DNA of 20,000 nt from an uncultured virus (IMG/VR IMGVR_UViG_3300035520_000941) (IMGVR_UViG_3300035520_000941), one strand, 5' to 3'. Counted from the stretch's first letter, positions 4,278 to 20,000 are shown. Notes: generated by a model not told the origin, from the letters alone. Numbers and translations: made by a program.

Positions 4278-4372
4278 AAAATGCTGTTTTAAGGCATTTT
4301 AAGGGTTTTTAATTAAACACTATAAATTTATAAAGGAATAATAAAACGCTTGTCAAAAGCGTTTTAAACGCT
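4278..4372. other. Intergenic symmetric element: hairpin, central palindrome, hairpin (possible terminator or single-strand/primosome signal)
   Basis: AAAATGC(4278-4284)/GCATTTT(4294-4300); perfect palindrome TATAAATTTATA (4321-4332); perfect 10-bp stem TAAAACGCTT(4342-4351)/AAGCGTTTTA(4357-4366). Confidence 0.55.
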
Positions 4373-4403
4373 GTTTAAGAGTAAAAAGTAAGGGAGTGGC
4401 AAC

Positions 4404-5087
4404 GTGAAAAGATATTATGTTTTAGACAAGAAAGATATTACAAATATTGTTGATGTTGGAGATAAGAAAACATTAATGAAAAAGTATAATTTTGAAGATG
4501 AAAAGAAGTTTATTTATGTAACAACTATAGGAACTGAATTTAATGGATATTATTTTATTCCTACAGATGATGACAAGATACAAAGAGATGAGATGTTTGA
4601 GGACGTTTTATTTCATGTGAACGAAAAAGCAAATATTAAATATTATGTTAATTGCAATGGCTTTTTCTTTTCTATTAATCAAAAAGGGCAAAAAAGAATG
4701 TTAAACCCGTGGTATGATAAAAGTTGCGATAAGTTGAAGTTAAAAATAGGCAAAAAAGGATATTATTGTGCCACGTTGATTGCTAAAACATTTAGAAAAG
4801 ATGAATATAATGAAAAAGATATTATTTTGTATAAAGACAACAACCCCAAAAACTTAAACTATAAGAATTTAGTTTTTGTAAGCAAAAGTTTCTTTGTAAA
4901 CAATATTGCTAAAAGACATCCAAAAGCACGTAAATTAGGTGTATTTGATGAAAATAATAATTTAATTAAACAATATGATAGTATCAGAAAAGCAAGTAAG
5001 GATTTATATGTTGATAGAAATTGCATTGTTGCAATCTTAAAAGGAAAAACTAAACATAAAATGTTTGATATTAGATATATAGAATAA
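4404..5087 (+). CDS. HNH-endonuclease-like protein with C-terminal NUMOD1-type DNA-binding module, catalytically degenerate
   Basis: YCATLIAKTF...IILYKDNNPKNLNYKNLVFV resembles the HNH_3 pattern (xHRLVAxxF...HxDxxxxNNxxxNL) with both His replaced. Tail FDENNNLIKQYDSIRKASKDL...ILKGK is NUMOD1-like. GTG start with RBS AAGGGAG. Confidence 0.7.
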   Translation: MKRYYVLDKKDITNIVDVGDKKTLMKKYNFEDEKKFIYVTTIGTEFNGYYFIPTDDDKIQRDEMFEDVLFHVNEKANIKYYVNCNGFFFSINQKGQKRMLNPWYDKSCDKLKLKIGKKGYYCATLIAKTFRKDEYNEKDIILYKDNNPKNLNYKNLVFVSKSFFVNNIAKRHPKARKLGVFDENNNLIKQYDSIRKASKDLYVDRNCIVAILKGKTKHKMFDIRYIE

Positions 5088-5112
5088 TATTAATCAATTT
5101 TATGAAAAACAC

Positions 5113-5141
5113 TTTACATGGTTATATTTTGGTATTATAAT
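5113..5141 (+). promoter_or_regulatory. Sigma-A type promoter for the replication gene block
   Basis: TTTACA (5113-5118), 17-bp spacer, TATAAT (5136-5141), within a 220-bp intergenic gap. Confidence 0.8.
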
Positions 5142-5246
5142 AGTAAATGTAAATTAAATAAAAAAGTCCAACAAGAATGAATGGGGTCATTCAAGTGAAC
5201 TTTACAAGAGTATTTTATCATATAGATAATAAATATTCAATGAATT

Positions 5247-5288
5247 TCTCACTTAGTGAATACCCTTTCATTTAAGTGAGATTTTTTT
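5247..5288 (+). terminator. Intrinsic terminator-like hairpin in the 5' leader (candidate attenuator)
   Basis: TCTCACTTA(5247-5255)/TAAGTGAGA(5273-5281) stem extended by TGAA/TTCA, followed by T7 (5282-5288), directly before RBS AGGAGGGAGG. Confidence 0.65.
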
Positions 5289-5307
5289 GTAGGAGGGAGG
5301 AAATTTT

Positions 5308-5634
5308 TTGAAGTTAAACAAGGAAAGGTGTATAGAGGCATTAGAGTTTTATCATACTAAAATATCTGGCTATGAAAAAAGCATAACCTCATATACTATC
5401 CTAAAAAATTTGATTGATGAGTATTTTAATGATAAGTCTTTGAAATTTGAGGATTTAGAATTTGAAATGCCTATCTGGGATAGTAAGGATAAGGAATGGT
5501 GTATACTCAAAAATGCCACATCTTCATTATTTTTTGGTAAACAATATATTTCATTAATTTGTTTTTCAAACACAAATGATATTGTTGACTTGGAATGGGA
5601 AGATGATAGATTTTATAGAAAGAAAAAGGAATAA
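5308..5634 (+). CDS. Hypothetical phage protein, paralogue family A
   Basis: TTG start with RBS AGGAGGGAGG; LIDEYFNDKSLKFEDL...IWDSK...DRFYRK. Confidence 0.82.
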   Translation: MKLNKERCIEALEFYHTKISGYEKSITSYTILKNLIDEYFNDKSLKFEDLEFEMPIWDSKDKEWCILKNATSSLFFGKQYISLICFSNTNDIVDLEWEDDRFYRKKKE

Positions 5635-5636
5635 AA

Positions 5637-5819
5637 ATGAATTTGACAAAAAAAGAAATTGATATTCTCATTGAATTAGCAAGAGAGAAAAAAGATTATT
5701 GCGAAAAGAAAATGATATGGTATGAAAAAAATCATGAAATTGAAGAAGAAGAAAAATATAAATGGTTAACAAAAGAATACCTTATCATTATTCAAAAACT
5801 AAAAAATATGAAAGGGTGA
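5637..5819 (+). CDS. Hypothetical protein (60 aa)
   Basis: RBS AAGGA; ORF track; tightly packed with neighbours. Confidence 0.7.
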   Translation: MNLTKKEIDILIELAREKKDYCEKKMIWYEKNHEIEEEEKYKWLTKEYLIIIQKLKNMKG

Positions 5820-5825
5820 TTGTAA

Positions 5826-6464
5826 TTGTTAGCGATTAATGGATTTAATCAAGATAAAATGAATATATATAATATTGATGTTGCTGATACTTGCATTATT
5901 GACTACATTATTTATATTTATTCATGTGATATTGTGCCAAGTATTATTATTAATGATACAAAGTACATATCATTTAATAAAGAGAAAATTAATAAGAACC
6001 TAAACGCTTTAAATCTAAAAGAGCGTGGATTAGAGCAAAGAATTAACAATTTAATTGCAAGTGGGTTCTTTGAAAGGAATGTTAAATTTGTAGATAAAAA
6101 GAAACGTAGTTTCATAAAACCAACTAATTTATGCTTGTTTATTAAAGACTTTAGTTATAACATTTATGAAGAATTTGTGAAACATGAATGTGCAGACTAT
6201 AATAAAGAAGATGTTGAAAAAAGAACTATCAAAGTCAAACATCTTTATAAGGAGTGTAAACATGTTAAGTTCACTGATGAGGAATTAAGTAAACTTAAAC
6301 AAGAATTTCCTTTTGATTATGAAACACAAATAATGAATTGCGAAAATTATTGTGAGTCAAAAGGTAAGAATTATTCCAATTATTTACAAACAATAAGGAA
6401 TTGGAACAAAGGAAAGAAAAATATGAAAAATACAAATATTGATGTTGGAGGGCTTGAATTTTAG
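5826..6464 (+). CDS. Phage replication initiator / replisome organiser-like protein
   Basis: Predicted N-terminal wHTH-like segment (LEQRINNLIASGFFER). C-terminal HVKFTDEELSKLK...YCESKGKNYSNYLQTIRNW is typical of phage initiators. Lies upstream of loader and helicase. Confidence 0.75.
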   Translation: MLAINGFNQDKMNIYNIDVADTCIIDYIIYIYSCDIVPSIIINDTKYISFNKEKINKNLNALNLKERGLEQRINNLIASGFFERNVKFVDKKKRSFIKPTNLCLFIKDFSYNIYEEFVKHECADYNKEDVEKRTIKVKHLYKECKHVKFTDEELSKLKQEFPFDYETQIMNCENYCESKGKNYSNYLQTIRNWNKGKKNMKNTNIDVGGLEF

Positions 6465-6467
6465 AAA

Positions 6468-6728
6468 ATGGAAGTGAACAAAATAAAATTAAGTCACGAC
6501 CAATTAACAAGTATTTTTCAAGAATTACGCTTGTATTATCCTAATAACCCATACAAAGATTATAATGCGAATGAACTTAAAGTGATTTTAAAAATGTATT
6601 ATGAGTCTTTGAAATATTATGATGAAAGTATAATACGAAAACGAATGACAAAGTATGTCGAAAAAGAAAAATTTTTTCCTCAAATTTGTGACTTAATCCC
6701 CCAAGAGAGCGATTTTAGAGGATATTAG
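6468..6728 (+). CDS. Helicase loader/inhibitor, SPP1 G39P-like
   Basis: 86 aa; LRLYYP...YYESLKYYD...YVEKEKFFPQICDL pattern; sits between initiator and DnaB. Confidence 0.65.
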   Translation: MEVNKIKLSHDQLTSIFQELRLYYPNNPYKDYNANELKVILKMYYESLKYYDESIIRKRMTKYVEKEKFFPQICDLIPQESDFRGY

Positions 6729-6730
6729 AT

Positions 6731-7942
6731 ATGAACGAAACTGAATATGAATATGAAATAATTTGTATGTTGATATGCAACCCCCAATGTATCAACGAAT
6801 GTGAATTAGAGAGTAAACACTTTTCAAATGATTTTTATAAAAAGATTTACCCTTTAATTGAAAAACAATACAAAGAAAAAGGGATTATAGATTTCTATGA
6901 AATAGAAAATAAATTTAGTGGCTTTTATTCTTTTGCGTTAGAATGTATAGAACATTATGTTACATCTGCAAATTTACATTATTATATCGAAAAAGTTGAA
7001 AACAACTATAAATTAAGGAAATATAATGAAATAATTGATAAATGCAACAATGGTTATATAGATTTTGAAGAAATGCAAAATGAATTAGATAGCGTTAAAA
7101 ATGAGTTTATTAAAACTGGTGATAAGAATAAATTGAGTGAAGAAGAAATTTATAGAGTTATCACAAAAGAGAATGAAATGCTTGAATTTGATAATTTTAA
7201 GCAATTAGAAAACAATATATCATTTATTAAAAATGGTATTCATGTTATTTCTGCACGTACAAGTGTAGGTAAAAGTGCTTTGGCAATCAATCTAATGAAT
7301 GATTTGTCAAAAAAGTACAAGTGTATATATCTCAATATGGAAATGAATGAACAAAAGATATATCAAAGAATGATTGCTTGTGAGTCGAATATTCCAATTA
7401 GCAATTTTACTAATTTAAGTGAAACGCAATCAAATACTATCAAAAGAACTATTAAAAATATTCATAATAGAAATTGGAAAATCATGAACGGCTCAAAAAG
7501 TGTAAGAGGTATCAAGTCGATTATTGCTAGAGAGAGCAGAGATGAGCATTTGATATTATTTGTCGATTACATTGGGTATGTGACAACTGGCAAAAAACAA
7601 AACGATAGAGAGCGTATTGGTGAGGCTGTAAGAGAGATACAATTAATGACAAAAGATTATGATGTAACTGTATTTCTATTGGCTCAAATTAATAGAGATG
7701 GAAATGATGAGCCTACTTTAGTTAATTTGAAAGATAGTGGAGAAATTGAACAGAGTGCCGAAACTGTATTGATTTTACACAATACATGCAAAGACTTAAA
7801 CGAAGAACAGCCAATTTATAGTATACTTGTACCCAAAAATAGAAATGGAAAACAAGGAAAATTAGAAATAAAATTCAATAAGCCTTGTCAAAAATTTGAA
7901 GAAATAGTAGAGGGTTATGGTTATGGAAACAGAGTTTATTAA
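6731..7942 (+). CDS. dnaB: Replicative DNA helicase, DnaB family
   Basis: Walker A ARTSVGKS, H1a YLNMEM, Walker B FVDYIG, LAQINR, LKDSGEIEQSAE, KNRNG. Confidence 0.93.
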   Translation: MNETEYEYEIICMLICNPQCINECELESKHFSNDFYKKIYPLIEKQYKEKGIIDFYEIENKFSGFYSFALECIEHYVTSANLHYYIEKVENNYKLRKYNEIIDKCNNGYIDFEEMQNELDSVKNEFIKTGDKNKLSEEEIYRVITKENEMLEFDNFKQLENNISFIKNGIHVISARTSVGKSALAINLMNDLSKKYKCIYLNMEMNEQKIYQRMIACESNIPISNFTNLSETQSNTIKRTIKNIHNRNWKIMNGSKSVRGIKSIIARESRDEHLILFVDYIGYVTTGKKQNDRERIGEAVREIQLMTKDYDVTVFLLAQINRDGNDEPTLVNLKDSGEIEQSAETVLILHNTCKDLNEEQPIYSILVPKNRNGKQGKLEIKFNKPCQKFEEIVEGYGYGNRVY

Positions 7943-8318
7943 AGAAAATGATAATTATATTTTGATTATCCATATCAACGATAATCAAGATGATAATGTT
8001 TATGTTAAGTGTGAAAAAGCAAGTATTGAACAAATGTACAAAAATAAAAGTATTGATTATGAAAGCCAAAAAAATATTGATTTTATAATGAAAAAAACAA
8101 AGTCATTATATTATGAACTTAAAAGCAATTTGGATTTATTAAATAATTTACCAATATTACTTGATAAAAATAAAATAAATGATGATGAATATGTCTTTAA
8201 TCTTATTATTTACATGGTAAAATATTGCACACATGAGGCTTTTGAAATGTATTATAGTGTTTATAAATCATTAGAAAATATTTGCTATACGCAACACATA
8301 AACAAAAAATTCAATTAA
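7917..8318 (+). CDS. Hypothetical protein (~132 aa)
   Basis: ORF track; RBS GAGGG; overlaps the helicase 3' end; start at 7917 or 7923. Confidence 0.7.
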   Translation: MVMETEFIKENDNYILIIHINDNQDDNVYVKCEKASIEQMYKNKSIDYESQKNIDFIMKKTKSLYYELKSNLDLLNNLPILLDKNKINDDEYVFNLIIYMVKYCTHEAFEMYYSVYKSLENICYTQHINKKFN

Positions 8319-8333
8319 TAAAGGGAGATATTA

Positions 8334-8642
8334 ATGGAAACAGAAAAAACAAAGATTATAGAAATAATAAAAGACAAATACAGATGTCAATATTATTATT
8401 TAGCAACAACTAAAGACTTCAAATTAGAAGAATTTAAGTTGATTAAAAATGCAAAAACGAAAGAAGAAAGATATGGTTGGGTATTTATTGGTTGGTTTTA
8501 TGGCATTGAAAATGTATTGAAATGGATTATTAAAAATGGGTGCTTAGAAAACGAAGATATAAGCACATTAGAGAAATATGTTGAAATGCAACAAAAAATG
8601 TTGAACGAATGTTTAAAGTCAAAGAATAATGAGGGCATTTAA
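8334..8642 (+). CDS. Hypothetical phage protein (102 aa)
   Basis: RBS AGGGAG; ORF track. Confidence 0.8.
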   Translation: METEKTKIIEIIKDKYRCQYYYLATTKDFKLEEFKLIKNAKTKEERYGWVFIGWFYGIENVLKWIIKNGCLENEDISTLEKYVEMQQKMLNECLKSKNNEGI

Positions 8643-8645
8643 AAA

Positions 8646-9011
8646 ATGGATGAAACATATAAAAAAATTTATTCATTTGATTTTGACGGAACAATTGTAG
8701 AAAATAAATATCCACAAATTGGCAAACCAATTAAAGAAGTAGTCGATTTAATAAAATGCGTTAAAAGAAATGGTGATTATATAATTTTGAATACAATGCG
8801 TGAAGATGAAAAATTAACAGAGGCTGTTGAATTTTGTAAAACATTAGGGATTGAATTTGATGCAATTAATGATAATCTTGAACATATGAAAAAATTTTAT
8901 AGGAATAACCCTAGAAAGATTTTTGCAAATTATTATATAGACGACCATAACGCATTTTTACCAAGCATAAATAATTATTTTGATTTATTTGGTGATGATG
9001 TATCATTATAA
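8646..9011 (+). CDS. HAD-superfamily phosphatase-like protein (cap-less phage type)
   Basis: Motif I DFDGTI, motif II LNTMR, K and YYIDD motif IV. Confidence 0.85.
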   Translation: MDETYKKIYSFDFDGTIVENKYPQIGKPIKEVVDLIKCVKRNGDYIILNTMREDEKLTEAVEFCKTLGIEFDAINDNLEHMKKFYRNNPRKIFANYYIDDHNAFLPSINNYFDLFGDDVSL

Positions 9012-9063
9012 TGGTAAATTAAAAGTAAACAATGTAATTAAAAATAACTATAGGAGTGTAAAC

Positions 9064-10008
9064 ATGGAAGAAAATATTAAGGTATTAGATAGTAAAATAA
9101 CAGACAAATATGCAATTTATAATGGTGATAGTTGCGAAATACTAAAAGCGTTTGAAAATAATTCAATTGATTATGCAATATTTAGTCCACCATTTGCAAG
9201 TTTATATACATATAGCGATAGTGCAAGAGATTTAGGAAATTGTAAAAATGATGAAGAATTTTATAAACAATTTGAATATATCGTTGAACAATTATACAGA
9301 GTTATTAAAGATGGCAGATTAATAAGTTTTCATTGTATGGATTTACCAACAGTAAAATCAAGAGATGGATTTATTGGTATAAAAGATTTTAGTGGTAAAT
9401 TGATTGAATTGTTTGAAAAAAAAGGATTTATTTATCATTCAAGAGTTACAATTTGGAAAGACCCAGTTGTGGCAATGCAAAGAACAAAAGCATTAGGATT
9501 GTTACACAAACAAATCAAAAAAGATAGTTCTATGTGCAGACAAGGGATAGCAGATTATGTAATCACAATGAGAAAACGAGGCGAAAACAAAGAAAGAATA
9601 ACTCATACTAATGAAACATTCCCAGTTGATTTATGGCAACAATATGCTAGTCCCGTTTGGATGGATATAAAACAATCAAACACTTTACAATCAAAAAGTG
9701 CTAGAGATGAAAAAGACGAAAAACATATCTGCCCTTTGCAATTAGATGTAATTGAAAGATGTGTGAAATTATGGAGTAATGAGGGTGATGTTGTTTTGAC
9801 ACCTTTTATGGGTATTGGTAGTGAAGTTTATCAATCAATTTTAATGAATAGATATGGTGTAGGAATTGAATTAAAAAGAAGTTATTATAATCAAGCAGTC
9901 AAAAATTGTGAAAATGCCGTTAATAAACCTAAACAAATATCATTATTTGATGAATTAAATGAAGAAGAAAAAGATGAGGTAATAGCATGGAATATAGCAA
10001 GTTTATAG
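9064..10008 (+). CDS. DNA N4-cytosine/N6-adenine methyltransferase, beta class (orphan)
   Basis: Catalytic FSPPF near the N-terminus; HICP and SAM-binding VLTPFMGIGS...GIEL near the C-terminus. Start placed at ATG 9064 after AGGAG (ORF track gives 8980). Confidence 0.92.
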   Translation: MEENIKVLDSKITDKYAIYNGDSCEILKAFENNSIDYAIFSPPFASLYTYSDSARDLGNCKNDEEFYKQFEYIVEQLYRVIKDGRLISFHCMDLPTVKSRDGFIGIKDFSGKLIELFEKKGFIYHSRVTIWKDPVVAMQRTKALGLLHKQIKKDSSMCRQGIADYVITMRKRGENKERITHTNETFPVDLWQQYASPVWMDIKQSNTLQSKSARDEKDEKHICPLQLDVIERCVKLWSNEGDVVLTPFMGIGSEVYQSILMNRYGVGIELKRSYYNQAVKNCENAVNKPKQISLFDELNEEEKDEVIAWNIASL

Positions 10009-11394
10009 AAAATAAAACAAAATATACAATCAATACTGGATTTGATGTGAAAGATGAAGAATTAAATGAAAATTTATTTGACTTTCAAAGAGCGATTGTA
10101 AAATGGGGATTAAAAAAAGGTAAATGTGCATTTTTTGAGGATACTGGATTAGGTAAAACAATTCAATTATTATCTTTTTCACAAGCCGTATATGAACATG
10201 AGAAAAAAATGACGGGGGGGCAAGATAATTATATTATCACCCCTTGCTGTTGCTGAACAAACAAAAAATGAGGGTTTAAAATTTGGAATTGATGTTAATA
10301 TTTGTGAAAACAAAGATGATGTTAAAGAGGGCATAAACATAACTAATTATGAAAAAATACATAAGTTTGATATGAGCGTTTTTGATGGTGTTGTATTAGA
10401 CGAAAGTTCAATCATTAAAAATCAATATGGAAAAATTAAAAATCAAATTATAGAAGAATTTAAGGATACAAAATATAAGTTATGTTGCACTGCAACACCT
10501 AGCCCAAATGATTTTACAGAAATAAGCACTCATGCTGAATTTTTAGATATCATGTCAACCAATGAAATGTTAGCAATGTTTTTTATTAACGATTGTATGG
10601 GAAAAAAAGGTTCTGGTGCTAATGGTTGGAGATTAAAAAAACACGCTGAAAAGGAATTTTATAAATGGCTTGCCAGTTGGTGCGTTATGATAAAAAATCC
10701 TAGTGATATAGGCTTTAATGGTGATAAATATATTTTACCAAAATTAAATATTATTGAGCATATCATTGAAAGTAAAGCAGATGAGGGAAGTTTATTTGTT
10801 GATTATGCCGAAACTTTAACAGAGAGAAGATTAGCCAGAAAAGATAGTCTTGAAGATAGAGTTGAATTAACTAATAAAATTGTATCAAAAACTGATAATT
10901 GTTTAATATGGTGTAATTATAATGATGAAAGTAACTTGTTAAAGAAAACTATAAAAGATAGTGTTGAAGTAAAAGGTAGTGATGACTCTGAACATAAGAA
11001 AAATAGCATGATTGGTTTTTCTAATAATGAAGTAAAATATCTTGTTAGCAAGCCGTCAATTTGTGGTTTTGGTATGAATTGGCAGAATTGCCATGATATG
11101 GTTTTTTGTGGATTAAGTGACTCTTACGAACAATTTTATCAAGCAATAAGACGTTGCTATAGATTTGGACAATCAAATGAAGTTAATGTTCATATTGTGA
11201 TAAGCGAAAAAGAAACGAACACTTTATTAAATATTCAAAAGAAAAAGAAAAATCACGATAGAATGATGAATGAAATGATTAAAATTATAGGTGATTTATC
11301 TAAACAAGAAATATTTAAACTTGAATATAGACACACTGATTATAATCCCAAAAAAGAAATTGAACTACCTAAGTTTATGAAAAAGAATAAGTAA
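9987..11394 (+). CDS. SNF2/SF2-like helicase split by a +1 frameshift at a G7 tract (468 aa if one base is removed)
   Basis: Frame 1 holds the Q-motif LFDFQ and Walker A DTGLGKT. Immediately after G7 the +1 frame reads GKIIILSPLAVAEQ (motif Ia), ITNYEK, DESS, TATP, GFGMNWQ and QAIRRCYRFGQ, continuous with ORF 10372-11394. Confidence 0.88.
10214..10220 (+). repeat. G7 homopolymer at the helicase frameshift (preceded by A7 at 10203-10209)
   Basis: ...AAAAAAATGACGGGGGGGCAAG...; the longest G run noticed in the window. Confidence 0.95.
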
Positions 11395-11404
11395 GGAGAA
11401 AAAA

Positions 11405-11461
11405 ATGAAACAATATTGTAGATATTGCATTTATATCTGTTATAGCAATATTTTATATTGA
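11405..11461 (+). pseudogene. 18-codon stub MKQYCRYCIYICYSNILY*
   Basis: Strong RBS TAAGGAG; CxxC start resembling small phage Zn-binding proteins, then a premature stop. Confidence 0.4.
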
Positions 11462-11477
11462 AAGTGAGGTTGAAAAA

Positions 11478-11927
11478 ATGAAAAATTTAGAAAAATATGA
11501 AAGTGCAGTAAAAGATTATGGAATTTATTTTGGTTTAGACAAAAACACAAGAGAATTATTTGAATGTTGCACAAAAGATGATTGCGAAAAATGTTCATTC
11601 ATGAACCATAATTGCCATAATAAAAAAATGGAATGGCTTTATCAAGAATATAGAGAGCCTATCAAATTAAAAAAAGTTGAATTTGAGTTTTTAAAATATA
11701 TTTATAAACTTGGATTTTTATACATTTCAAAAGATAGTTACGGTGCTTTAGAAATTCATATTGATAAGCCAATAGAAACAGAAAAAGGATATTTTGTGAG
11801 TGATGATTGTTGCGATTTTAACCAGTTTACATATTTTGGATTGTTTGAATTTGTAAAGTCAAAAAACCTAATAAGCATTGAAAATTTATTAAGTTTTGGA
11901 ATTGTGGAGGAAGTAGAAGATGACTAA
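11478..11927 (+). CDS. Hypothetical Cys-rich phage protein, paralogue family B
   Basis: C-x4-CxxC-x5-C cluster followed by WLYQEYREPIKL..VEFEFLKY; similar to 11920-12375. Confidence 0.85.
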   Translation: MKNLEKYESAVKDYGIYFGLDKNTRELFECCTKDDCEKCSFMNHNCHNKKMEWLYQEYREPIKLKKVEFEFLKYIYKLGFLYISKDSYGALEIHIDKPIETEKGYFVSDDCCDFNQFTYFGLFEFVKSKNLISIENLLSFGIVEEVEDD

Positions 11928-12375
11928 TTTTGAAAAGTTTAAAAATGAAGTAAAGGGATGTAATTATAATTTTAGTATTACTAAAGACAACAAAATAATA
12001 CCTTGTGAAATAGCAAAATGTAGAGATTGTATTTTTATGGAAATACCTAAATCTTGTTCTCATCAAAGAATTATGTGGCTTTATGAAGAATATAAAGAAC
12101 CACCTATTTACCTAAGTAAAGTGGAATACGAATTATTGAATTATATTCTTAATAATAAAAAATGCGAATGGATTATAAAAGGAACAAGCAATAAAACTTT
12201 ATATGTATGCAAAGATAAGCCAATTAAAGAAGAAACAAATTGGATAATTGGAAGTGTTGAGTGTCAAGTTATTGATGGTATATTTTGTGATTTATTTCAT
12301 TTTATAAAAGCAGAAGATGGAGAACCTTACTACTCAATAAAAGAAATTTTAGATAATTGCATAATTGTGAATTAA
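11920..12375 (+). CDS. Hypothetical Cys-rich phage protein, paralogue family B
   Basis: CEIAKCRDCIF...C...WLYEEYKEP...VEYELLNY; tandem paralogue of 11478; RBS GGAGG. Confidence 0.85.
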   Translation: MTNFEKFKNEVKGCNYNFSITKDNKIIPCEIAKCRDCIFMEIPKSCSHQRIMWLYEEYKEPPIYLSKVEYELLNYILNNKKCEWIIKGTSNKTLYVCKDKPIKEETNWIIGSVECQVIDGIFCDLFHFIKAEDGEPYYSIKEILDNCIIVN

Positions 12376-12394
12376 TAAAAAGGAGAATAATAAC

Positions 12395-12589
12395 ATGAAT
12401 AAATATGAAAAGGCTTTATATGGTGCGATTGAAAGAAGTTCAATAATGAATAATTGTTGTGCCTTTGTAAAAGAATGTATTAAAAACAATAAATGTCATT
12501 ATGCTAATTTTGATAAAAATGAATGCGAAGATTATGAAGTGTTTCATAATTTGAAAGAATTGGTTGATATGGAGATTAAACAAAAATGA
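12395..12589 (+). CDS. Hypothetical Cys-rich protein (64 aa)
   Basis: RBS AAGGAG; MNKYEKA...Cys cluster...LKELVD resembles the N-terminal half of 1400-1777. Confidence 0.72.
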   Translation: MNKYEKALYGAIERSSIMNNCCAFVKECIKNNKCHYANFDKNECEDYEVFHNLKELVDMEIKQK

Positions 12590-12744
12590 TTTTAAGTAAA
12601 AAAACAATTAAAGCAATGTATGAAATAAATTGGGGGATACATCATTTGTTTGGCAATTTCTATTTGGTTAAAATGTATTCACCAAGAACAAAAGGCTTAA
12701 GAAGATTAATATGGGTTATTGATTATGCAAAGGAAAGGAAATAA
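12586..12744 (+). CDS. Small hypothetical protein (52 aa), below the ORF-track cutoff
   Basis: Manual translation MILSKKTIKAMYEINWGIHHLFGNFYLVKMYSPRTKGLRRLIWVIDYAKERK*; ATGA overlap, RBS GGAG; fills the gap between neighbours. Confidence 0.65.
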   Translation: MILSKKTIKAMYEINWGIHHLFGNFYLVKMYSPRTKGLRRLIWVIDYAKERK

Positions 12745-12748
12745 AACA

Positions 12749-12936
12749 ATGAGTTATTTTAAACATCAAAAATTAATCAGATTAAAATTAACGAACAGAA
12801 TGTTCAAAAAATACCATATAGATGAAATATGCCCCGATAATTTTCTTTTTGATAAGGAGATTGAATATGAGGGAACAGATAAAGAAAGATATTTCAATGA
12901 AAATCCTAGCAAGACTAGAACTAGAAAGAACTTCTT
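12749..12936 (+). repeat. Direct repeat copy 2 (copy 1 at 2707-2894)
   Basis: 186/188 identical to copy 1 by direct comparison; offset 10042 bp. Confidence 0.95.
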
Positions 12937-13192
12937 TGCAATGACGTCCACTGGCAAAAATCAATACATCGACTTTGTATTAGAGGAAGATGAGAACTTT
13001 CAAGGTCAATTTGGCTATGTTCAAAAGTTAAGTAATGATGACTTCAATAAATATCGAGAATTGTTCGTAGACCTACTTGGTTTCAATTACTGTGATATCA
13101 AATCGTTATGCTTTGTCGAACATTGTTGGTATGACGGAGCGGACGAACCTGATTACTATGTAGAAGAATTGGGGTGGCTAGATGAACGCTAA
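12749..13192 (+). CDS. Hypothetical phage protein (147 aa), full-length version of the duplicated gene
   Basis: Start MSYFKHQK after AAAGGA (ORF track gives 12719); C-terminal WYDGADEPDYY. Confidence 0.85.
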   Translation: MSYFKHQKLIRLKLTNRMFKKYHIDEICPDNFLFDKEIEYEGTDKERYFNENPSKTRTRKNFFAMTSTGKNQYIDFVLEEDENFQGQFGYVQKLSNDDFNKYRELFVDLLGFNYCDIKSLCFVEHCWYDGADEPDYYVEELGWLDER

Positions 13193-13424
13193 TGAAATGT
13201 TTAAAAAATTGGGTTATACCTATAGGGAAATGGGCAAAAATAAAAATCTTACTATTGTATATAAAGATGAAAAAAATAAAAAATATATGATTTTTCAAGG
13301 AAAATATAAAACAGTAACAAGTGCATATTTAGATGATAATCACGAAGTATATCGTGCAGAATTAAATTTTAAAGAATTACAAGCAATCTTAGAAAAAATG
13401 AAAGAGTTGGGGTGGGAACATTGA
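13182..13424 (+). CDS. Hypothetical phage protein (80 aa)
   Basis: MNANEMFKKLGY...ELQAILEKMKELGW pattern; RBS GGGGTGG. Confidence 0.8.
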   Translation: MNANEMFKKLGYTYREMGKNKNLTIVYKDEKNKKYMIFQGKYKTVTSAYLDDNHEVYRAELNFKELQAILEKMKELGWEH

Positions 13425-13735
13425 CATATGAAGATTATCAAAAAAGTGTTAATCAAATTTGCTTAATATTTAATAAATATTACGAATTTTATAAAAACAC
13501 AACGCATTCAGAAGAACAAGATTATATGATTTTTAACTATAATATAGATAAAATTATGAAGTTTCAATTTGAAAGCGAAGTAGAAAAACAATCAAAATTA
13601 AATAAAGAAGAATGGCATTTTATTAAAACAACAATAGAATGCAATAAAAGTATATTAGATTTTGATAGTGATGATATGATTAAGTTACTGAATAAAATTA
13701 AAAAACAAGAAAGGCTATTAGAAAAAAATAAATGA
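13421..13735 (+). CDS. Hypothetical protein (~104 aa)
   Basis: ORF track 13412-13735; TTG at 13421 overlaps the upstream stop (TTGA) and follows GGGGTGG. Confidence 0.7.
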   Translation: MTYEDYQKSVNQICLIFNKYYEFYKNTTHSEEQDYMIFNYNIDKIMKFQFESEVEKQSKLNKEEWHFIKTTIECNKSILDFDSDDMIKLLNKIKKQERLLEKNK

Positions 13736-13760
13736 TTTGAATTTATGAAAGGACAAAAAA

Positions 13761-14775
13761 ATGAATAACATAAATATTTTTGATATACTATATGATAATT
13801 TCAAAATAACAAAACCAATTAGATTAATAGAATTATTTGCGGGCATAGGCTCACAAGCAAAAGCATTAGAAAGATTAAATGTTGATTTTGAGCATTATAA
13901 AGTTTGCGAATATGATAAATACGCTATACAAAGTTATAACGCTATTCATGGTACTAATTTTAAAACTAGCGATATAACAAAAATACACGCTAAAGATTTA
14001 AATATTATTCAAACATATATATATATATATATTGACATACTCTTTTCCTTGTCAAGACTTGTCAAATGCAGGGAATAAAAAAGGAATGTCAAAGGGCAAA
14101 AATACACGTAGTGGATTATTATGGGAAGTCGAAAGAATATTAGATGAGTGTGAAGAATTGCCACAAATACTTTTAATGGAAAATGTACCAGAAATAATTG
14201 GAAATAAGAATATAAATGATTTTAAATTATGGATAAAAAAATTAGAAAGTTTAGGGTATTCAAATTACATAAATATTTTAAATGCTAAAGATTATGGAAT
14301 ACCTCAAAATAGAAAAAGGTGCTTTATGGTAAGCGTTTTAGGTGAATATAATTATACATTCCCAAAAGGATTTGACTTAGATAAAAATTTATATGATTTA
14401 TTAGATGAAAAAGTAGATGATAAATACTTTTTATCAGAAAAAATGGTTGACACATTCACTAAATATAAAAGTAAAACATATAATCGAAAATACAAATTTA
14501 ATAGGAATTTTATTCACACAAAAAAATTGGCATTTACATTGAATACATGTTGCAATGGTAGAGATACCGATAATTATTTGTATGATAAAATGAAAAATGG
14601 TGAAATAAATATTAGATGTCTGACACCTTTAGAGTGTTTTAGATTAATGGGTTTTGAAGATGAAGATTATCAAAAATGCAAAAATATTGGTATGAGTGAT
14701 AGACAATTATATAAGCAAGCAGGCAATAGCATTGTTATTAATGTATTATATTATCTTTTTAAACAATTTTTTTAA
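13761..14775 (+). CDS. DNA (cytosine-5) methyltransferase split by a frameshift at an (AT)9 microsatellite (338 aa with (AT)10)
   Basis: Frame 1 holds motif I ELFAGIG, motif II CEYD and motif III SDITKI. After the repeat the +1 frame reads LTYSFPCQDLS (motif IV), LLMENV (VI), PQNRKR (VIII), LTPLECFRLMGF (IX) and YKQAGNSI (X). Confidence 0.92.
14015..14032 (+). repeat. (AT)9 dinucleotide microsatellite inside the C5 methyltransferase gene
   Basis: CAAAC-ATATATATATATATATAT-TGACATAC; the longest dinucleotide run noticed in the window. Confidence 0.96.
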
Positions 14776-14776
14776 G

Positions 14777-14805
14777 TTTACAATTTAACAATAAAATGTT
14801 AAAAT
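14777..14805 (+). promoter_or_regulatory. Sigma-A promoter with extended -10 and overlapping inverted repeat, driving the recombination block
   Basis: TTTACA (14777-14782), 17 bp, TG-n-TAAAAT (14797-14805); inverted repeat TTTAACA-N6-TGTTAAA (14784-14803). Confidence 0.75.
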
Positions 14806-14836
14806 AGAGTATATGAAAGGAAGGAATTAAACGAAA

Positions 14837-16843
14837 ATGGAAGAAGAAAAAATACTTGTAATTGACAAAATAAGAATTGAAAATTTTATGTCAATTGCAA
14901 AAAAAGAAATTGAGTTTAGCAAGAACTTTAATGAATTTGTAGGATTTAATGGAGTTGGTAAAACAACTGTATTAAGTGCGATTAACTGGTGCTTATTTGG
15001 TAAAGATTATTATGATAAAAGCCAGTTTGATATTTTCCCAATCATTGAGGGAAAAGTAAGGAAAGAATTAAAACCACATATTGAAGTTGATGTTATTTTT
15101 GGTAGTGAAAAATATACTATTACACGTTCAATTGTTGGAGATAAGGATTTAACGCAACTTGAAGTCAATGGATTAAAAGTTAAGAAAAATAGCGAATACC
15201 CTACTTTCTTAAAGGAGAAATTAAACATCAATGATGAAGAATTTAAAATGTTATCCAATATCAATTACGCAATCAATCTACCACAAAATGATTTAAGAAA
15301 TTTGATTGTAAATTTGATTGGTGATATTAGCGATGTAGAAATGTTTACACATGAAGAAATTGAAAACAAATATAGTTCAATTAAAAATAAAGTAATTGAA
15401 GTGGGAACAGAGGAATTAAAGCAAAATATCACTACAAGCAAAAAAAATAGGAATACTGAATTGCTAAAAACGATTGGGGCGATTGAGCAAGAGGAGTCAA
15501 ATATCCAAAAATTTAATTTTGATGATAAGTACATTGAAAACATCAAAAAAAGACGTGATGAATTGTTTGAAATTAATGACAACTATTCTAAAAAAGTTGA
15601 TATCGAAAACAAAAAAAGAAGTGATATCAATAATTTAAAATTAGAAATATCAAAGAAAGAAAATGAATGTCAAAGATTAAAAAATGAATTTGATGCGAAA
15701 AATAGAGATGGAGTAGCAATCAAAGAAAAAATCAATAGAATAACAAATATTGATAACATGAGAAACAATGACATTCATAAAATTGAACTTGAAATTCAAA
15801 ACATAGATTTTGAAATTGAAAGTACCGATAATCATATTAACAATCTAAAAACTCAAAAGCAAAATATTGTTAATGAGTTTAATTCTTTAAAAGGATTAGA
15901 AATTGTTGTTGAAAATACTGTCTGTGAAAGTTGTGGGCAAGAATTACCAAAAGAAAAAATCAATGAAATTCTTGAATTTAAGAAAAAATCACATGACAAT
16001 AAACTTCAATCATTAAAAGATGAAAACGACAAATACAAAGAAATGATTGAAAACGAAGAAAAGCATATTGTTTATATAAAAAGTGAAAAAGAAAGAAAAA
16101 TGGCAAAAATAAAAGAACTTGAAACAAAAGATTACTCACAAGAAATTATGAGCAATCAAGAAGTCAATAGTTTGAATATTGAAATACAAAACAAAAGAAA
16201 TGAATGTATTGAAATTAAAGGCAAGATACAAGAAATTTCAAAAAGCATTGTATTATTAAAACAACAATTAGAAAGATTGCCACTACCTTTAGATGTTCCG
16301 TCAATAAACAATATTAAGTTAGAATTAGAAAATATCAATAAGAATCTAGCAAATTATGAAGTATTGAATGAGCATAAAGGCAATCTTGAAAAATTGAAAG
16401 AAAAGAAAGAAAAACTAGATAAAGATATAATCTTATTAAATCACATGGAAATGCTTTTAAAGGATTATAAAACAACTAAAAGTGAAATGATGACAAAGAA
16501 ATTAGAAAGCAAATTTAAACTTATTTCATTCAAAACAAAAGAAATTAATAAGAGTGGGAATATTATAGATTGCTTTAAAGTTACAATGAATGGAAAAGAC
16601 TTTGTTTCGTTATCTGGTGGCGAAAAAATGAGAGCAAGTATTGATATGGTATGTGGTATTCAAGAGTTAAAGCAAAAGAAAATACCATTATTAATAGATT
16701 GTATGGGTGAATTAGATGAGTTCCCAGAATTTGTAAATACGCAAGTTATCTCATGTAGAGCAATGCAAAAAATCAAAGAAACACACCCTAAATACAACGA
16801 ATATATGACAACTTATAATAAGTTGCAAATGATAAAAAGATAA
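14837..16843 (+). CDS. Rad50/SbcC-like coiled-coil ABC ATPase (phage recombination ATPase)
   Basis: N-terminal IENF, Walker A GFNGVGKTT, long coiled coil with zinc hook CESCGQ, signature LSGGEK, Walker B LLID. Confidence 0.9.
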   Translation: MEEEKILVIDKIRIENFMSIAKKEIEFSKNFNEFVGFNGVGKTTVLSAINWCLFGKDYYDKSQFDIFPIIEGKVRKELKPHIEVDVIFGSEKYTITRSIVGDKDLTQLEVNGLKVKKNSEYPTFLKEKLNINDEEFKMLSNINYAINLPQNDLRNLIVNLIGDISDVEMFTHEEIENKYSSIKNKVIEVGTEELKQNITTSKKNRNTELLKTIGAIEQEESNIQKFNFDDKYIENIKKRRDELFEINDNYSKKVDIENKKRSDINNLKLEISKKENECQRLKNEFDAKNRDGVAIKEKINRITNIDNMRNNDIHKIELEIQNIDFEIESTDNHINNLKTQKQNIVNEFNSLKGLEIVVENTVCESCGQELPKEKINEILEFKKKSHDNKLQSLKDENDKYKEMIENEEKHIVYIKSEKERKMAKIKELETKDYSQEIMSNQEVNSLNIEIQNKRNECIEIKGKIQEISKSIVLLKQQLERLPLPLDVPSINNIKLELENINKNLANYEVLNEHKGNLEKLKEKKEKLDKDIILLNHMEMLLKDYKTTKSEMMTKKLESKFKLISFKTKEINKSGNIIDCFKVTMNGKDFVSLSGGEKMRASIDMVCGIQELKQKKIPLLIDCMGELDEFPEFVNTQVISCRAMQKIKETHPKYNEYMTTYNKLQMIKR

Positions 16844-16866
16844 AAAGATAAAAAGGAGATATATAA

Positions 16867-17817
16867 ATGGCTGAAATTAAAAAGAATGAAGTTGTATACA
16901 CACAAGAAGAATTATCTAAGCATAGCCTTGTTTTACCTAAAAATATAGGCGACCAAGTGTACAATACCTTAAGTTTACAACAACAAAATAACAGATTGTC
17001 ATTTCCTAAAAATTATGATTTAGGGAACGCTTTAACAAGTGCTTATTTAATTATTGCACAAGATAACAAATTAAAATGTTGCGATAATCAAAGTATTGTA
17101 CAATCTATGATTGATATGGCAACAATGGGATTGAACCCAAGCAAAAAACAATGTTATTTTATTCCAATGGGAAATAAATGTACATTAATGACTAGTTATT
17201 TCGGAAAACAAACAGCATTAAAAAGAATTAAAGGTATCAAAGATATTAGAAGTGATGTTATCTATGAGGGTACAGAATATGAATTGTTTGTTGATGAATA
17301 TGGCAATGATGATATTAAAATAATTAAGCCTTGTCCTTTGAAAGATAGAAAACAAGATAAAATTGAGGGTGCTTGGGCAAGAATTATCATGGATAAAGAT
17401 GTATGGGGAGTTGATAGTTATGTTTCAATTATGACAATTGAAGATATCAAAAACGCTCATAAATTAGGCAGTGCAAGAGGTGGCTCAAAGGCTCATCAAG
17501 ACTTCTTGAATGAAATGGCTAAAAAGAGTGCTATCAATAGATGTGTGAAAAACTTTATTAACACAAAAGCAGATGAAGATTTAATTATTGAAAGTTTCAA
17601 TAATGTTGTGAACAACGAATATAAAGAAGAAAAACAACAAGAAGAATATTATGTACAAAAAGATGTAAATACTAATGATATTTTCAATCAAGAAGTAGTT
17701 GAAGAAGAAAAAGAAAGCAAAGTAAAAGAAGAAACTCAAAATATCAAACAAGATGATAATGTTATTGATGTTGAAATAGAAAAAGAAACATTATTTGATG
17801 ATGACATTCAATTTTAA
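16867..17817 (+). CDS. recT: RecT-family single-strand annealing recombinase
   Basis: MATMGLNPSKKQCYFIPMG, SYFG and EMAKKSAINR motifs; acidic tail; follows the Rad50-like ATPase. Confidence 0.9.
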   Translation: MAEIKKNEVVYTQEELSKHSLVLPKNIGDQVYNTLSLQQQNNRLSFPKNYDLGNALTSAYLIIAQDNKLKCCDNQSIVQSMIDMATMGLNPSKKQCYFIPMGNKCTLMTSYFGKQTALKRIKGIKDIRSDVIYEGTEYELFVDEYGNDDIKIIKPCPLKDRKQDKIEGAWARIIMDKDVWGVDSYVSIMTIEDIKNAHKLGSARGGSKAHQDFLNEMAKKSAINRCVKNFINTKADEDLIIESFNNVVNNEYKEEKQQEEYYVQKDVNTNDIFNQEVVEEEKESKVKEETQNIKQDDNVIDVEIEKETLFDDDIQF

Positions 17818-17836
17818 ATAATGATGAGGTTAAAAA

Positions 17837-18445
17837 ATGGAAACAAATACATTTGATTATGAAAAAAACAAAAAAAGATATATTGATATATGTAAAAGTA
17901 ATATTCATAGAGATGGAATTGAAAAACTTTTGGATTGGCTAGATAGGAGCGATTTTTATAACGCTCCTGCTAGTTCCAGATATCATTTAGCATGTAAAGG
18001 TGGATTATGTCAACACTCTTTAAACGTTTATAAACGCTTATTTAAGGAGTTTTGTAATGAATGTGATATAAATAACATAGATGATGAAAAAGTGCTTGAA
18101 ACAGTGACTATTGTGTCTTTATTCCACGATTTATGCAAAGTAAACTTTTATAAAGAAGATGTTAGAAATGTAAAAGAAAATGGAGTATGGGTGCAAAAAC
18201 CATATTATACAATTGATGAAAAAATCTCGTTAGGTCATGGAGAAAAAAGCGTTATTATATTGCAACAATTCATGAAATTGACAATGGAAGAAATAGTATC
18301 AATTAATAGTCATATGGGATTTAGTGATAATCGTGTTAAGGGTGGCGATTATTCAATTATCAATGTGTGGGATAAATATAAACTTGCATTATTATTACAC
18401 GTTGCAGATTTAAAAGCAACTAAAATAGATGAAGTTAATATGTAA
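17837..18445 (+). CDS. HD-domain phosphohydrolase
   Basis: APASSRYH...GGLCQHSLNV, LFHDLCK, GHGEKS, HMG and LHVAD. Confidence 0.9.
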   Translation: METNTFDYEKNKKRYIDICKSNIHRDGIEKLLDWLDRSDFYNAPASSRYHLACKGGLCQHSLNVYKRLFKEFCNECDINNIDDEKVLETVTIVSLFHDLCKVNFYKEDVRNVKENGVWVQKPYYTIDEKISLGHGEKSVIILQQFMKLTMEEIVSINSHMGFSDNRVKGGDYSIINVWDKYKLALLLHVADLKATKIDEVNM

Positions 18446-18459
18446 TAGGTAAAATAAAT

Positions 18460-18789
18460 ATGATTAAAAAATATATTAGCAAAAATGAAGATGGTATAGA
18501 AGTTTGTAAAAGATATGAAATTTTTTGTGATACTTGCAAAATGCGTTTGAAAGCAGATGGAGATAAGGTTATCAAGTTTAAGAAATATCCAGTTAAATAT
18601 TTCAATGTAAAAATTGAATATGCAAATGGAAAAACAGATAATCTAGTGTTATGTCATACATGCTTTAACAACTTTATTGATGATTTTATACATGAATGTA
18701 AAAAAGGCGATAAGTTGAATATTGTTTATAGTGATAATGCTCAACTTTATCTATGTGGAAATATAGAATATGATTATACAACAGATTAG
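18460..18789 (+). CDS. Hypothetical Zn-ribbon-like protein (109 aa)
   Basis: CDTC...CHTC cysteine pairs; RBS AGGT. Confidence 0.72.
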   Translation: MIKKYISKNEDGIEVCKRYEIFCDTCKMRLKADGDKVIKFKKYPVKYFNVKIEYANGKTDNLVLCHTCFNNFIDDFIHECKKGDKLNIVYSDNAQLYLCGNIEYDYTTD

Positions 18790-19276
18790 AGCATTTCATA
18801 ATCACACAAAATATCGTATATCTTGCACTAATAAAAAAGATTTAGGCACACCAAAAGTTACAGTAAAAATAACAAAAGATGGTAAAATACTTAAAATATT
18901 TAAAAATGGCAAAAAATGTTATATACCAATTCAAGATATGATAACTTATTATACAATAGTAGATAAAATACCATATTTTAATTGTGGTTACAATAAAACT
19001 ATAAATGAATATACTATAAAACATAAAATTGCGATAAGATTGAATGAAACTAGCATTAGATTATTATACAAAGAATTAGGGTATGCAACAAATATAAATC
19101 TTTGCTTTTATCCAGATATCAAAAACACAAATATTATTAAAATCGAACCACATATTATTGGAATTGAACAGAATATAGATTTGCTAAATGCAATTATTAA
19201 TAACACAAATGGATATGAAAAAGCATTTTGTTATATAGGTATTAAAGATGATTTTGTTTACTTCATTCAATATTAA
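18770..19276 (+). CDS. Hypothetical protein (168 aa)
   Basis: ORF track; long stop-free frame in AT-rich DNA, co-directional with neighbours. Confidence 0.68.
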   Translation: MIIQQIRAFHNHTKYRISCTNKKDLGTPKVTVKITKDGKILKIFKNGKKCYIPIQDMITYYTIVDKIPYFNCGYNKTINEYTIKHKIAIRLNETSIRLLYKELGYATNINLCFYPDIKNTNIIKIEPHIIGIEQNIDLLNAIINNTNGYEKAFCYIGIKDDFVYFIQY

Positions 19277-19302
19277 TAAAAAAAGAAATTAGGTGAAATT
19301 AT

Positions 19303-19536
19303 ATGGATATATTAAAAAAGGACGTTGTTAAATGGGACAGTGACAAACAAGAATATGAAGATTATACACTTCCAGAGGGTTCATCTTTATATGAAACAGA
19401 TATGAATAAAATAGTGTCTTGTGCTTGTTGTGGAAAGAAATTAAAATTTGGAAATTGTTATACTTCACGTACAATTTATAATACATATGGATTGGGATAT
19501 GCTATATGTAAAAATTGTCATAGAAAAGAGGTATAA
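19303..19536 (+). CDS. Small Zn-finger-like phage protein (77 aa)
   Basis: CACCGK...CKNC; RBS AGGTG. Confidence 0.8.
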   Translation: MDILKKDVVKWDSDKQEYEDYTLPEGSSLYETDMNKIVSCACCGKKLKFGNCYTSRTIYNTYGLGYAICKNCHRKEV

Positions 19537-19538
19537 TA

Positions 19539-20000
19539 ATGAAACACATTGTTAGTTTAAGTGGTGGAATAGGTAGTTATTTCACTCTAAAAAGAGTATT
19601 AGAAAAGCAACCCAAAGAAGATGTAATAGCCGTATTTTGTGATACACTTGCTGAGGACGGCGATTTATATAGATTTTTAAACGATATAGAAAATAAATTA
19701 GATATTAAAATATTAAAATTGTGTTATGGTAAATCACCTATAGAGTTAGCATATGAACAAAACTTTGTATATAATTCAAGAGTCGCAAATTGTTCAAAAA
19801 TATTAAAATCAAGATTATTTAAAAAATGGCTAAAAGAAAATTTCAAACAAAATGAATGTATATTGTATTTAGATATAGATTTTACAGAAAGTCATAGATG
19901 TAATGCAATAATTAAGAATTATAAACCATATAAAGTTGAATTTCCTATGTTAGAAAAACCATATATATATAAAAGTGAAATGATAGATATGTTATCAAAT
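19539..20000 (+). CDS. PAPS-reductase / adenine nucleotide alpha-hydrolase (PP-loop) family phage protein, 3' end beyond the window
   Basis: Not in the ORF track (no stop in window). Manual translation MKHIVSLSGGIGS...FCDTLAEDGDLYRFL...NSRVANCSKILK...IDFTESHR...FPM; PP-loop SGGxxS; RBS GAGGT. Confidence 0.8.
   Translation, partial: MKHIVSLSGGIGSYFTLKRVLEKQPKEDVIAVFCDTLAEDGDLYRFLNDIENKLDIKILKLCYGKSPIELAYEQNFVYNSRVANCSKILKSRLFKKWLKENFKQNECILYLDIDFTESHRCNAIIKNYKPYKVEFPMLEKPYIYKSEMIDMLSN

Follow-up and report, generated by a model that had tools for sequence, protein, structure and literature searches.

Two long conserved genes, for a SNF2-like helicase and a C5 cytosine DNA methyltransferase, are each divided over two reading frames in 20,000 nucleotides (nt) of DNA from an uncultured virus (IMG/VR IMGVR_UViG_3300035520_000941; this whole stretch is called the window below). 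The frame changes coincide exactly with two simple repeats: a run of seven G (G7) in the helicase gene and nine AT units, (AT)9, in the methyltransferase gene (Table 1). A tract of G6 or G9 rejoins the helicase frames, and (AT)7 or (AT)10 those of the methyltransferase. We think that both genes are contingency loci, i.e. mutational on/off switches driven by slippage at the repeats, and that both are read here in the OFF state; we give this reading a probability of about 0.6.

Judged from its translation, the second of these genes is a C5 cytosine DNA methyltransferase: the two pieces cover PF00145 from end to end, the TIGR00675 match scores 158.4 bits (cut-off 100.65), and motif I, the catalytic PCQ, ENV and motifs IX and X can be read (FAGIGSQ, FPCQ, MENVP, RLMGF and QAGNS). 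Frame 0, which reads ...DLNIIQTYIYIYI, contains motif I (FAGIGSQ); about 90 of the 105 amino acids (aa) of this N-terminal fragment are native and the final 15 codons are an out-of-frame tail. The next frame reads LTYSFPCQDLS... and contains motifs IV (FPCQ), VI (ENV), IX and X. Of the two lengths that would fuse the frames, (AT)10 is the one that gives the length of the homologues.

The (AT)9 tract encodes YIYIYI, in the strand that enters catalytic motif IV. The closest relative (P0002; 80% identical, 342 aa, intact, reading ...AKDLNIVLPYIYIYILTYSFPCQ) has PYIYIYILTYSFPCQ at the break site, i.e. YIYIYI-LTYSFPCQ, with the same six residues that the window would encode with one extra AT unit. 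The distance from AKDL to TYSFPCQ is 12 residues in P0002, equal to that in homologues reading DKFCYVM or DKYEYIM there. With the same spacing with and without the repeat, the repeat would be a recoding of the strand before the PCQ loop and not an insertion, and the (AT)9 allele of the window would thus be one unit short. Among solved structures, chains 4dkj and 8c56 are the best match to P0002 (E 8e-39; IYILTYSFPCQDLS aligns with IDIFTYSFPCQDLS), and the recoded strand of the window lines up with their IDIFTYSFPCQ. These chains, which we take to be M.MpeI, are cellular C5 enzymes and, unlike the phage gene, have no repeat in that strand. Scans of metagenomes and genomes with the C-terminal fragment found only relatives of at most 57% identity, all intact at the site.

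The first split gene is, by motif I, the DExx box and the Helicase_C domain, a SNF2-like superfamily 2 helicase. Its frame 0, which reads ...GLGKTIQLLSFSQAVYEHEKKMTGG, carries motif I (GLGKT) and stops 12 codons past the G tract; the next frame reads ...GGKIIILSPLAVAEQT... and carries KIIILSPLAVAEQT, the DExx box (VLDESS) and Helicase_C (positions 7-110 of 110, 37.7 bits). This second frame opens directly after a TGA, with its first ATG at 10372, and its product is 78-79% identical to intact relatives of 460 aa (79% being the best match in the protein search). SNF2-rel_dom is divided between the pieces: the N-terminal fragment matches positions 2-56 with 22.1 bits, below the Pfam cut-off of 24.9, and the C-terminal fragment scores 25.5 bits.

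Motifs I and Ia are separated by the loop that holds the G tract. This loop reads KHENGSVIILSPL in the three closest proteins (78-79%, 460 aa); that of the window, EKKMTGGK, is four residues longer and includes A7 plus the G run. All 43 other loci with helicase relatives covering the site are in frame there and encode the loop without a G run (e.g. KHTGGTVLIL, with GGAGGT). An in-frame tract would use the codons ACG-GGG-GGC, which make up 7.7% of the Thr, 8.7% of the Gly and 15.7% of the Gly codons, respectively, and none of the eight other Gly-Gly pairs in the window is encoded by a G run. Absent from relatives, built of rare codons and found as G7 or G8 (see below), the G tract is thus young, odd for this genome and variable between assemblies. 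Two helicase relatives (P0146 and P0237, one of which stands for 53 member sequences) begin at or just before motif Ia (MILAPLAV...); these short forms may be frameshifts in the same loop of another lineage, or products of gene calling at contig ends.

An intact gene for an N6/N4 DNA methyltransferase overlaps the start of the helicase gene by 22 nt, and a homologue of this methyltransferase adjoins the helicase homologue in all 45 related loci (upstream in 18, downstream in 27). PHROG 16 matches the methyltransferase and the helicase at separate positions of one profile, so fused forms of the two proteins exist. Judged from this conserved gene order the pairing of helicase and N6/N4 methyltransferase is solid, and the helicase may contribute to methylation. 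Type III restriction-modification was considered for these genes and rejected: the PF01555 gene is unbroken and free of out-of-frame repeats, the helicase would have only about 465 aa, and Pfam finds no nuclease domain. A DISARM-like or Zorya-like system was rejected as well, as models of defence systems give generic methyltransferase matches plus weak matches to DrmD, ZorD and DpdF.

Both repeats are unusual in this DNA. G7 is the sole run of at least six G or C in the window and (AT)9 the sole dinucleotide repeat of more than five units, and both stay unique, bar one G6, over a composite of 46.4 kb (the window plus the remainder of IMG/VR contig G001). In 200 shuffles of the window that preserve dinucleotides, G7 is expected 0.12 times and occurs at least once in 18 shuffles, and (AT)9 occurs in none. 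The G6 of the composite (27456-27461, in contig G001 outside the window) was rejected as a gene break: with a start codon 9 nt downstream, its placement suggests a ribosome-binding site, where a change of length would shift the spacing. Runs of seven or eight A or T are frequent in the window (35 runs), and none of them breaks an open reading frame (ORF). A first-pass annotation of this DNA had proposed that only two long conserved genes are broken, each at the longest repeat of its kind and just after its first motif, with all later motifs open, and that in-frame A8 runs speak against a generic homopolymer error. We can confirm these points: Pfam and PHROG scans of the remaining ORFs of the window find no further family divided over adjacent frames, GLGKT and FAGIGSQ lie in the N-terminal pieces and the later motifs in the C-terminal frames, and the A8 runs at 9416-9423 and 15440-15447 are inside intact ORFs, in frame.

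The site directly before motif IV carries repeats in other phages too. Among the C5 protein relatives listed, 22 of 120 read TYLLTYSFPCQ, and the DNA behind it is (TTAC)n. When IMG/VR was scanned by pattern, 57 contigs had (TTAC)3-6 immediately preceding SFPCQ. In 42 of them the frame is kept, in 14 it is lost through one unit too many or too few, and one is cut by the contig end. Motif I is open in the shifted frame for 13 of the 14 out-of-frame contigs. Loci L162 and L164 form a near-isogenic pair: aligned over 830 nt, they are distinguished by a single mismatch and a gap of 4 nt, with four units in L162 (OFF) and five in L164 (ON). Two proteins (P0004 and P0118) are of the OFF type, with one additional LLTY. 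As a control, 25 of 25 relative C5 loci are in frame across the site, most of them without a repeat (a few represent the same phage twice). Three other proteins (P0021, P0033 and P0109) read RERER just upstream of this site and may, as judged from the proteins, carry a third kind of repeat.

Repeats are also found elsewhere in genes of this kind. In the C5 gene of a 49% relative, (AG)10 separates the target-recognition region from motif IX and encodes ERERERE in frame (L064:5480-5499), and G7 is found in frame in two loci of relatives (L109 and L119). A phage contig of 50% G+C has a long C5 methyltransferase gene (L128:5656-7515) with four G runs (G9, G7, G8 and G8), which separate stretches resembling target-recognition modules; the reading frame shifts at three of the runs, and these runs may switch specificity modules besides turning the gene on or off. 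In a related phage of 26% G+C, whose N6/N4 methyltransferase is 73% identical to that of the window, a second PF01555 methyltransferase gene (L036:45-1044) is split exactly at a G7 (202-208). In another locus a small gene downstream of a helicase-methyltransferase pair (L019:5564-6254), with FFPCTYF and ENP motifs and no Pfam match, is split at a G9 (5716-5724). The annotation 'helicase (x2)' of Dulem virus 39 was considered as a further split gene and rejected, being an intact helicase and a methyltransferase annotated as helicase; the C5 methyltransferase gene of this virus has no repeat.

Other assemblies of the same phage allow the tracts to be compared. IMG/VR contig G001 is 100% identical to positions 13629-20000 of the window over 6,372 bases, (AT)9 included; contig G002 (7,071 bases, also collected as locus L018) aligns with positions 4283-11352 free of mismatches, the one gap being G8 for G7. 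Taken together there is one difference in 13,442 bases, at the G tract. We also counted alleles by exact-sequence look-ups of the fragments in a collection of 15 billion proteins: the G7 form of the helicase N-terminal fragment (89 aa) was found on one contig (73,643 bases), its G8 form (80 aa) on four contigs (the longest of 73,422 bases), and the 105-aa C5 fragment, which is diagnostic of exactly (AT)9, on five contigs from two source collections. Both breaks are real; the agreement of the assemblies outside the G tract and the recurrence of the forms on one, four and five contigs bear out the earlier claim that they are no generic sequencing error. A near-identity search of the phage collection gave no match.

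The downstream halves of the broken genes show no decay in relative-rate counts at the protein level (the window versus an intact sister, with eight or nine outgroups), which give no significant window excess in either gene. For the C5 C-terminal fragment the window- versus sister-specific changes are 11/14, 14/18, 11/13, 7/15, 6/13, 8/13, 13/16, 10/16 and 11/14, so that the window's changes never exceed the sister's (nine of nine outgroups); for that of the helicase there is no significant window excess in 24 comparisons (lowest p 0.096). No extra stop or indel is found in the 247 (C5) and 393 (helicase) codons, in sequence of 26% G+C. With no decay downstream, the breaks should be recent or intermittent, and both a recent loss and an intermittent OFF state are possible.

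Several observations weigh against active switching. The chief one is the lack of an ON allele of this phage: protein searches gave no full-length form of either gene at 90% identity or more (the search with the C5 C-terminal fragment returned the window's own 229-aa fragment and next an 80% relative, with none between), and each of the five contigs is OFF in both genes. (AT)9 is invariant in five of five contigs, which are perhaps not independent samples, and G7 and G8, both of them OFF, are also what drift of a dead gene could give. The G tract, lacking in the 43 related helicase loci and in the 120 protein relatives listed, has no evolutionary depth, and P0002 appears to have one more AT unit by its protein, from which alone the length of its tract is deduced. 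In favour of switching, repeats are enriched in methyltransferase genes among 54 non-redundant loci around the relatives (533 kb), where methyltransferase spans account for 12.3% of the DNA and hold 14 of 27 repeats (9 loci; binomial p 7.6e-7), but we chose the repeat thresholds ourselves, and several repeats share one gene and are not all independent. The first-pass annotation had proposed candidate phase-variable switches here, in whose favour tract lengths that vary between conserved flanks, and repeats shared by homologues, would count. Variation holds for the G tract, which differs between near-identical assemblies, and does not for the constant (AT)9; sharing fails for the helicase; and the switches themselves gain from the ON and OFF states of the C5 site in other phages and from the YIYIYI kept in P0002, but not from any ON allele of this phage.

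The lack of an ON allele is compatible with a recent one-way loss, in which the repeats are mutational hot spots where two dispensable accessory genes were lately knocked out; these genes would be heading for decay, and no adaptive switching would take place. In its favour, none of the five contigs is ON in either gene, the protein collection yielded no ON form, G7 and G8 would be two successive OFF lengths, and the G tract is lineage-specific. We nevertheless regard it as rather unlikely, although it deserves to be taken seriously: the broken genes have neither further stops or indels nor an excess of amino-acid changes over their intact sisters, the 80% relative retains a perfect repeat at the same C5 site (as read from its protein), ON and OFF alleles are frequent at this site across phages, and a break at a repeat can be reverted through the identical slippage.

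Sequencing or assembly error over tracts that are truly in frame is very improbable. Indel errors are classically found in homopolymers and dinucleotide repeats, and two assemblies do give different G tracts; the (AT)9 form, however, recurs exactly on five contigs of two collections. The comparison over 13,442 bases includes many A7-A8 runs and shows no other difference. We set the chance of an artefact this low because these runs are all spared and because a true G6 or G9 would hardly give one assembly a consensus of G7 and four a consensus of G8.

We see still less reason to assume programmed recoding, by which ribosomal or transcriptional slippage would yield full-length protein at a constitutive low level. 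To judge from sequence and codon usage, peptidyl-tRNA(Gly) could re-pair in +1 on GGG-GGG before a rare codon; the shifts required by G7 and G8, however, would be of opposite direction, there is no evident stimulatory element, and the relatives all encode single ORFs. We know of no recoding on (AT)n. A natural two-subunit C5 methyltransferase, assembled from separately made pieces, can be practically dismissed: the 105-aa fragment does match NCBIfam NF045953 (C5 N-terminal subunits, 107 positions), but with a score of only 35.6 (cut-off 93), its final 15 residues are out of frame, the only start that keeps PCQ (TTG at 14032) has no Shine-Dalgarno sequence before it and the first ATG (14086) comes after PCQ, and the closest relative, P0002, is a single chain.

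If both genes are slippage-driven contingency loci, as we prefer to think, slipped-strand mispairing during phage DNA replication would gain or lose one G or one AT unit. (AT)10 would give a full-length orphan C5 cytosine methyltransferase, which in the ON state would put 5-methylcytosine on the phage DNA, and G6 or G9 would restore the helicase, which would assist the neighbouring N6/N4 methyltransferase. With each gene toggled by slippage, the phage population would consist of sub-populations that differ in DNA methylation. OFF would be favoured where the host restricts methylated DNA, and ON where methylation blocks the cognate restriction enzyme. The first-pass annotation had gone on to propose up to four modification states, which might in this way serve as a hedge between modification-blocked and modification-dependent restriction.

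More tentatively, it is possible that the orphan C5 methyltransferases of gut-type phages share an evolved switch site before the PCQ loop, where (AT)n or (TTAC)n, and perhaps RERER as a third kind, leave the protein length unchanged and about a quarter of the alleles are OFF. In the phage of the window this site would be joined by an independent G-tract switch in the helicase gene, giving a stock of several methylome states that hedges against restriction. If the reading as switches holds, slippery repeats would make phage methylomes mixed populations rather than fixed properties of a genome, which would bear on host-range prediction, on restriction escape in phage therapy and on the 'pseudogenes' of viral metagenomes. 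The furthest-reaching result lies outside the window: the C5 site before motif IV, with its 57 IMG/VR contigs and its ON and OFF alleles one unit apart, is a testable system.

The remaining genes give the setting of these two loci. The window (26.0% G+C, every listed gene on the plus strand) reads as a replication/recombination module of an uncultured phage, and named relatives suggest a host among the low-G+C gut Bacillota or a Mollicute-like one. The gene with HNH and NUMOD domains is free-standing between dnaN and dnaB and probably encodes a homing endonuclease. Between the helicase and the C5 gene are two tandem, Cys-rich paralogues (149 and 151 aa). A 198-nt copy of positions 11460-11657, 92% identical, is found elsewhere in the phage (G001:19380-19577), and this repeat may account for the break of the IMG/VR assembly between 11352 and 13629.

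Table 1. Position of the split genes, their repeats and the neighbouring genes in the window
Feature	Position	Strand	Evidence
DnaN clamp	3152-4267	+	Pfam/PHROG scans
HNH/NUMOD endonuclease	4404-5087	+	Pfam/PHROG scans
DnaB	6731-7942	+	Pfam/PHROG scans
N6/N4 DNA methyltransferase, intact, 314 aa	9064-10008	+	PF01555 positions 1-221 of 221, 68.5 bits
SNF2-like helicase, both fragments together	9987-11394	+	Pfam/PHROG 62
Helicase N-terminal fragment, 89 aa	9987-10256	+	Motif I GLGKT; PHROG 62
G7 tract, break point in helicase	10214-10220	+	Translation of both frames
Helicase C-terminal frame, motif Ia onward and Helicase_C	10213-11394	+	PHROG 62, E 2.9e-47
Two paralogous PHROG 22292 proteins	11478-12375	+	PHROG
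C5 cytosine methyltransferase, both fragments together	13761-14775	+	PF00145
C5 methyltransferase N-terminal fragment, 105 aa	13761-14078	+	PF00145 positions 1-59
(AT)9 tract, break point in C5 methyltransferase	14015-14032	+	Translation of both frames
C5 methyltransferase C-terminal frame, 247 aa	14032-14775	+	PF00145 positions 66-321 of 324, 178.5 bits
SbcC/AAA_23-like ATPase	14837-16843	+	Pfam/PHROG scans
RecT	16867-17817	+	Pfam/PHROG scans
HD phosphohydrolase	17837-18445	+	Pfam/PHROG scans
PAPS-reductase-like gene	from 19539	+	Pfam/PHROG scans

Already in print are contingency loci of phages (T2/T4 among them) and a bacterial C5 methyltransferase that is phase-variable through (AG)n. Literature searches, which included a 2026 review and returned their texts in part, gave no account of repeat-switched phage C5 methyltransferases or of the site before motif IV. 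According to the available part of a recent report, the agt gene of phage T2 is a contingency locus with an A run, whose ON and OFF states trade TgvAB against McrBC (10.1101/2025.10.21.683753), and its authors, Gomez, Barrick and Waters, cite poly-G tracts for receptor-binding genes of Campylobacter Fletchervirus as well as for a Bordetella phage BPP-1 methylase gene. By analogy, T2 agt may serve as an experimental precedent for the restriction hedge: it shares with the loci described here a simple repeat in a phage gene, for which we propose reversible frameshifts and a restriction trade-off such as those of T2, where the gene encodes a DNA-modification enzyme. In what these sources describe, the tracts of T2, Fletchervirus and BPP-1 are homopolymers, whereas the window has a dinucleotide repeat in a C5 methyltransferase gene and a G run in a helicase partner; and switching was measured for T2 agt, whereas for the window it is proposed from sequence.

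Among bacterial systems, as far as the accessible portions of the papers describe them, a close one is the Helicobacter pylori gene hpyAVIBM, which encodes a solitary C5 cytosine methyltransferase and is phase-variable, with (AG)n of 4-5 units in its ORF (PMC3411764). It is likewise an orphan C5 methyltransferase gene with a coding dinucleotide repeat in which a changed number of units truncates the enzyme; it is, however, bacterial and chromosomal, with few units at another site, whereas the gene described here is phage-borne and has nine units directly before motif IV. Type III mod phasevarions, e.g. of Haemophilus (PMC1976455) and M.MmyCI of Mycoplasma mycoides with (AG)12 (PMC3498834), also toggle a DNA methyltransferase by repeat slippage. 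In these phasevarions a PF01555 Mod subunit is paired with a Res nuclease, and the regulation of host genes is what they act on, whereas in the window the mod-type PF01555 gene is intact, no nuclease domain is found, and the repeats are in the helicase and the C5 gene; the comparison with Type III phasevarions in the first-pass annotation is therefore one of mechanism by analogy, not of membership. Finally, phages have pairs or fusions of a SNF2 helicase and an N6/N4 methyltransferase (PHROG 16 and 62), with the same two domains adjacent in either gene order. Unlike these relatives, the window has the pair as two overlapping genes, and the loop that separates motifs I and Ia of its helicase is lengthened and holds a G tract specific to the lineage.

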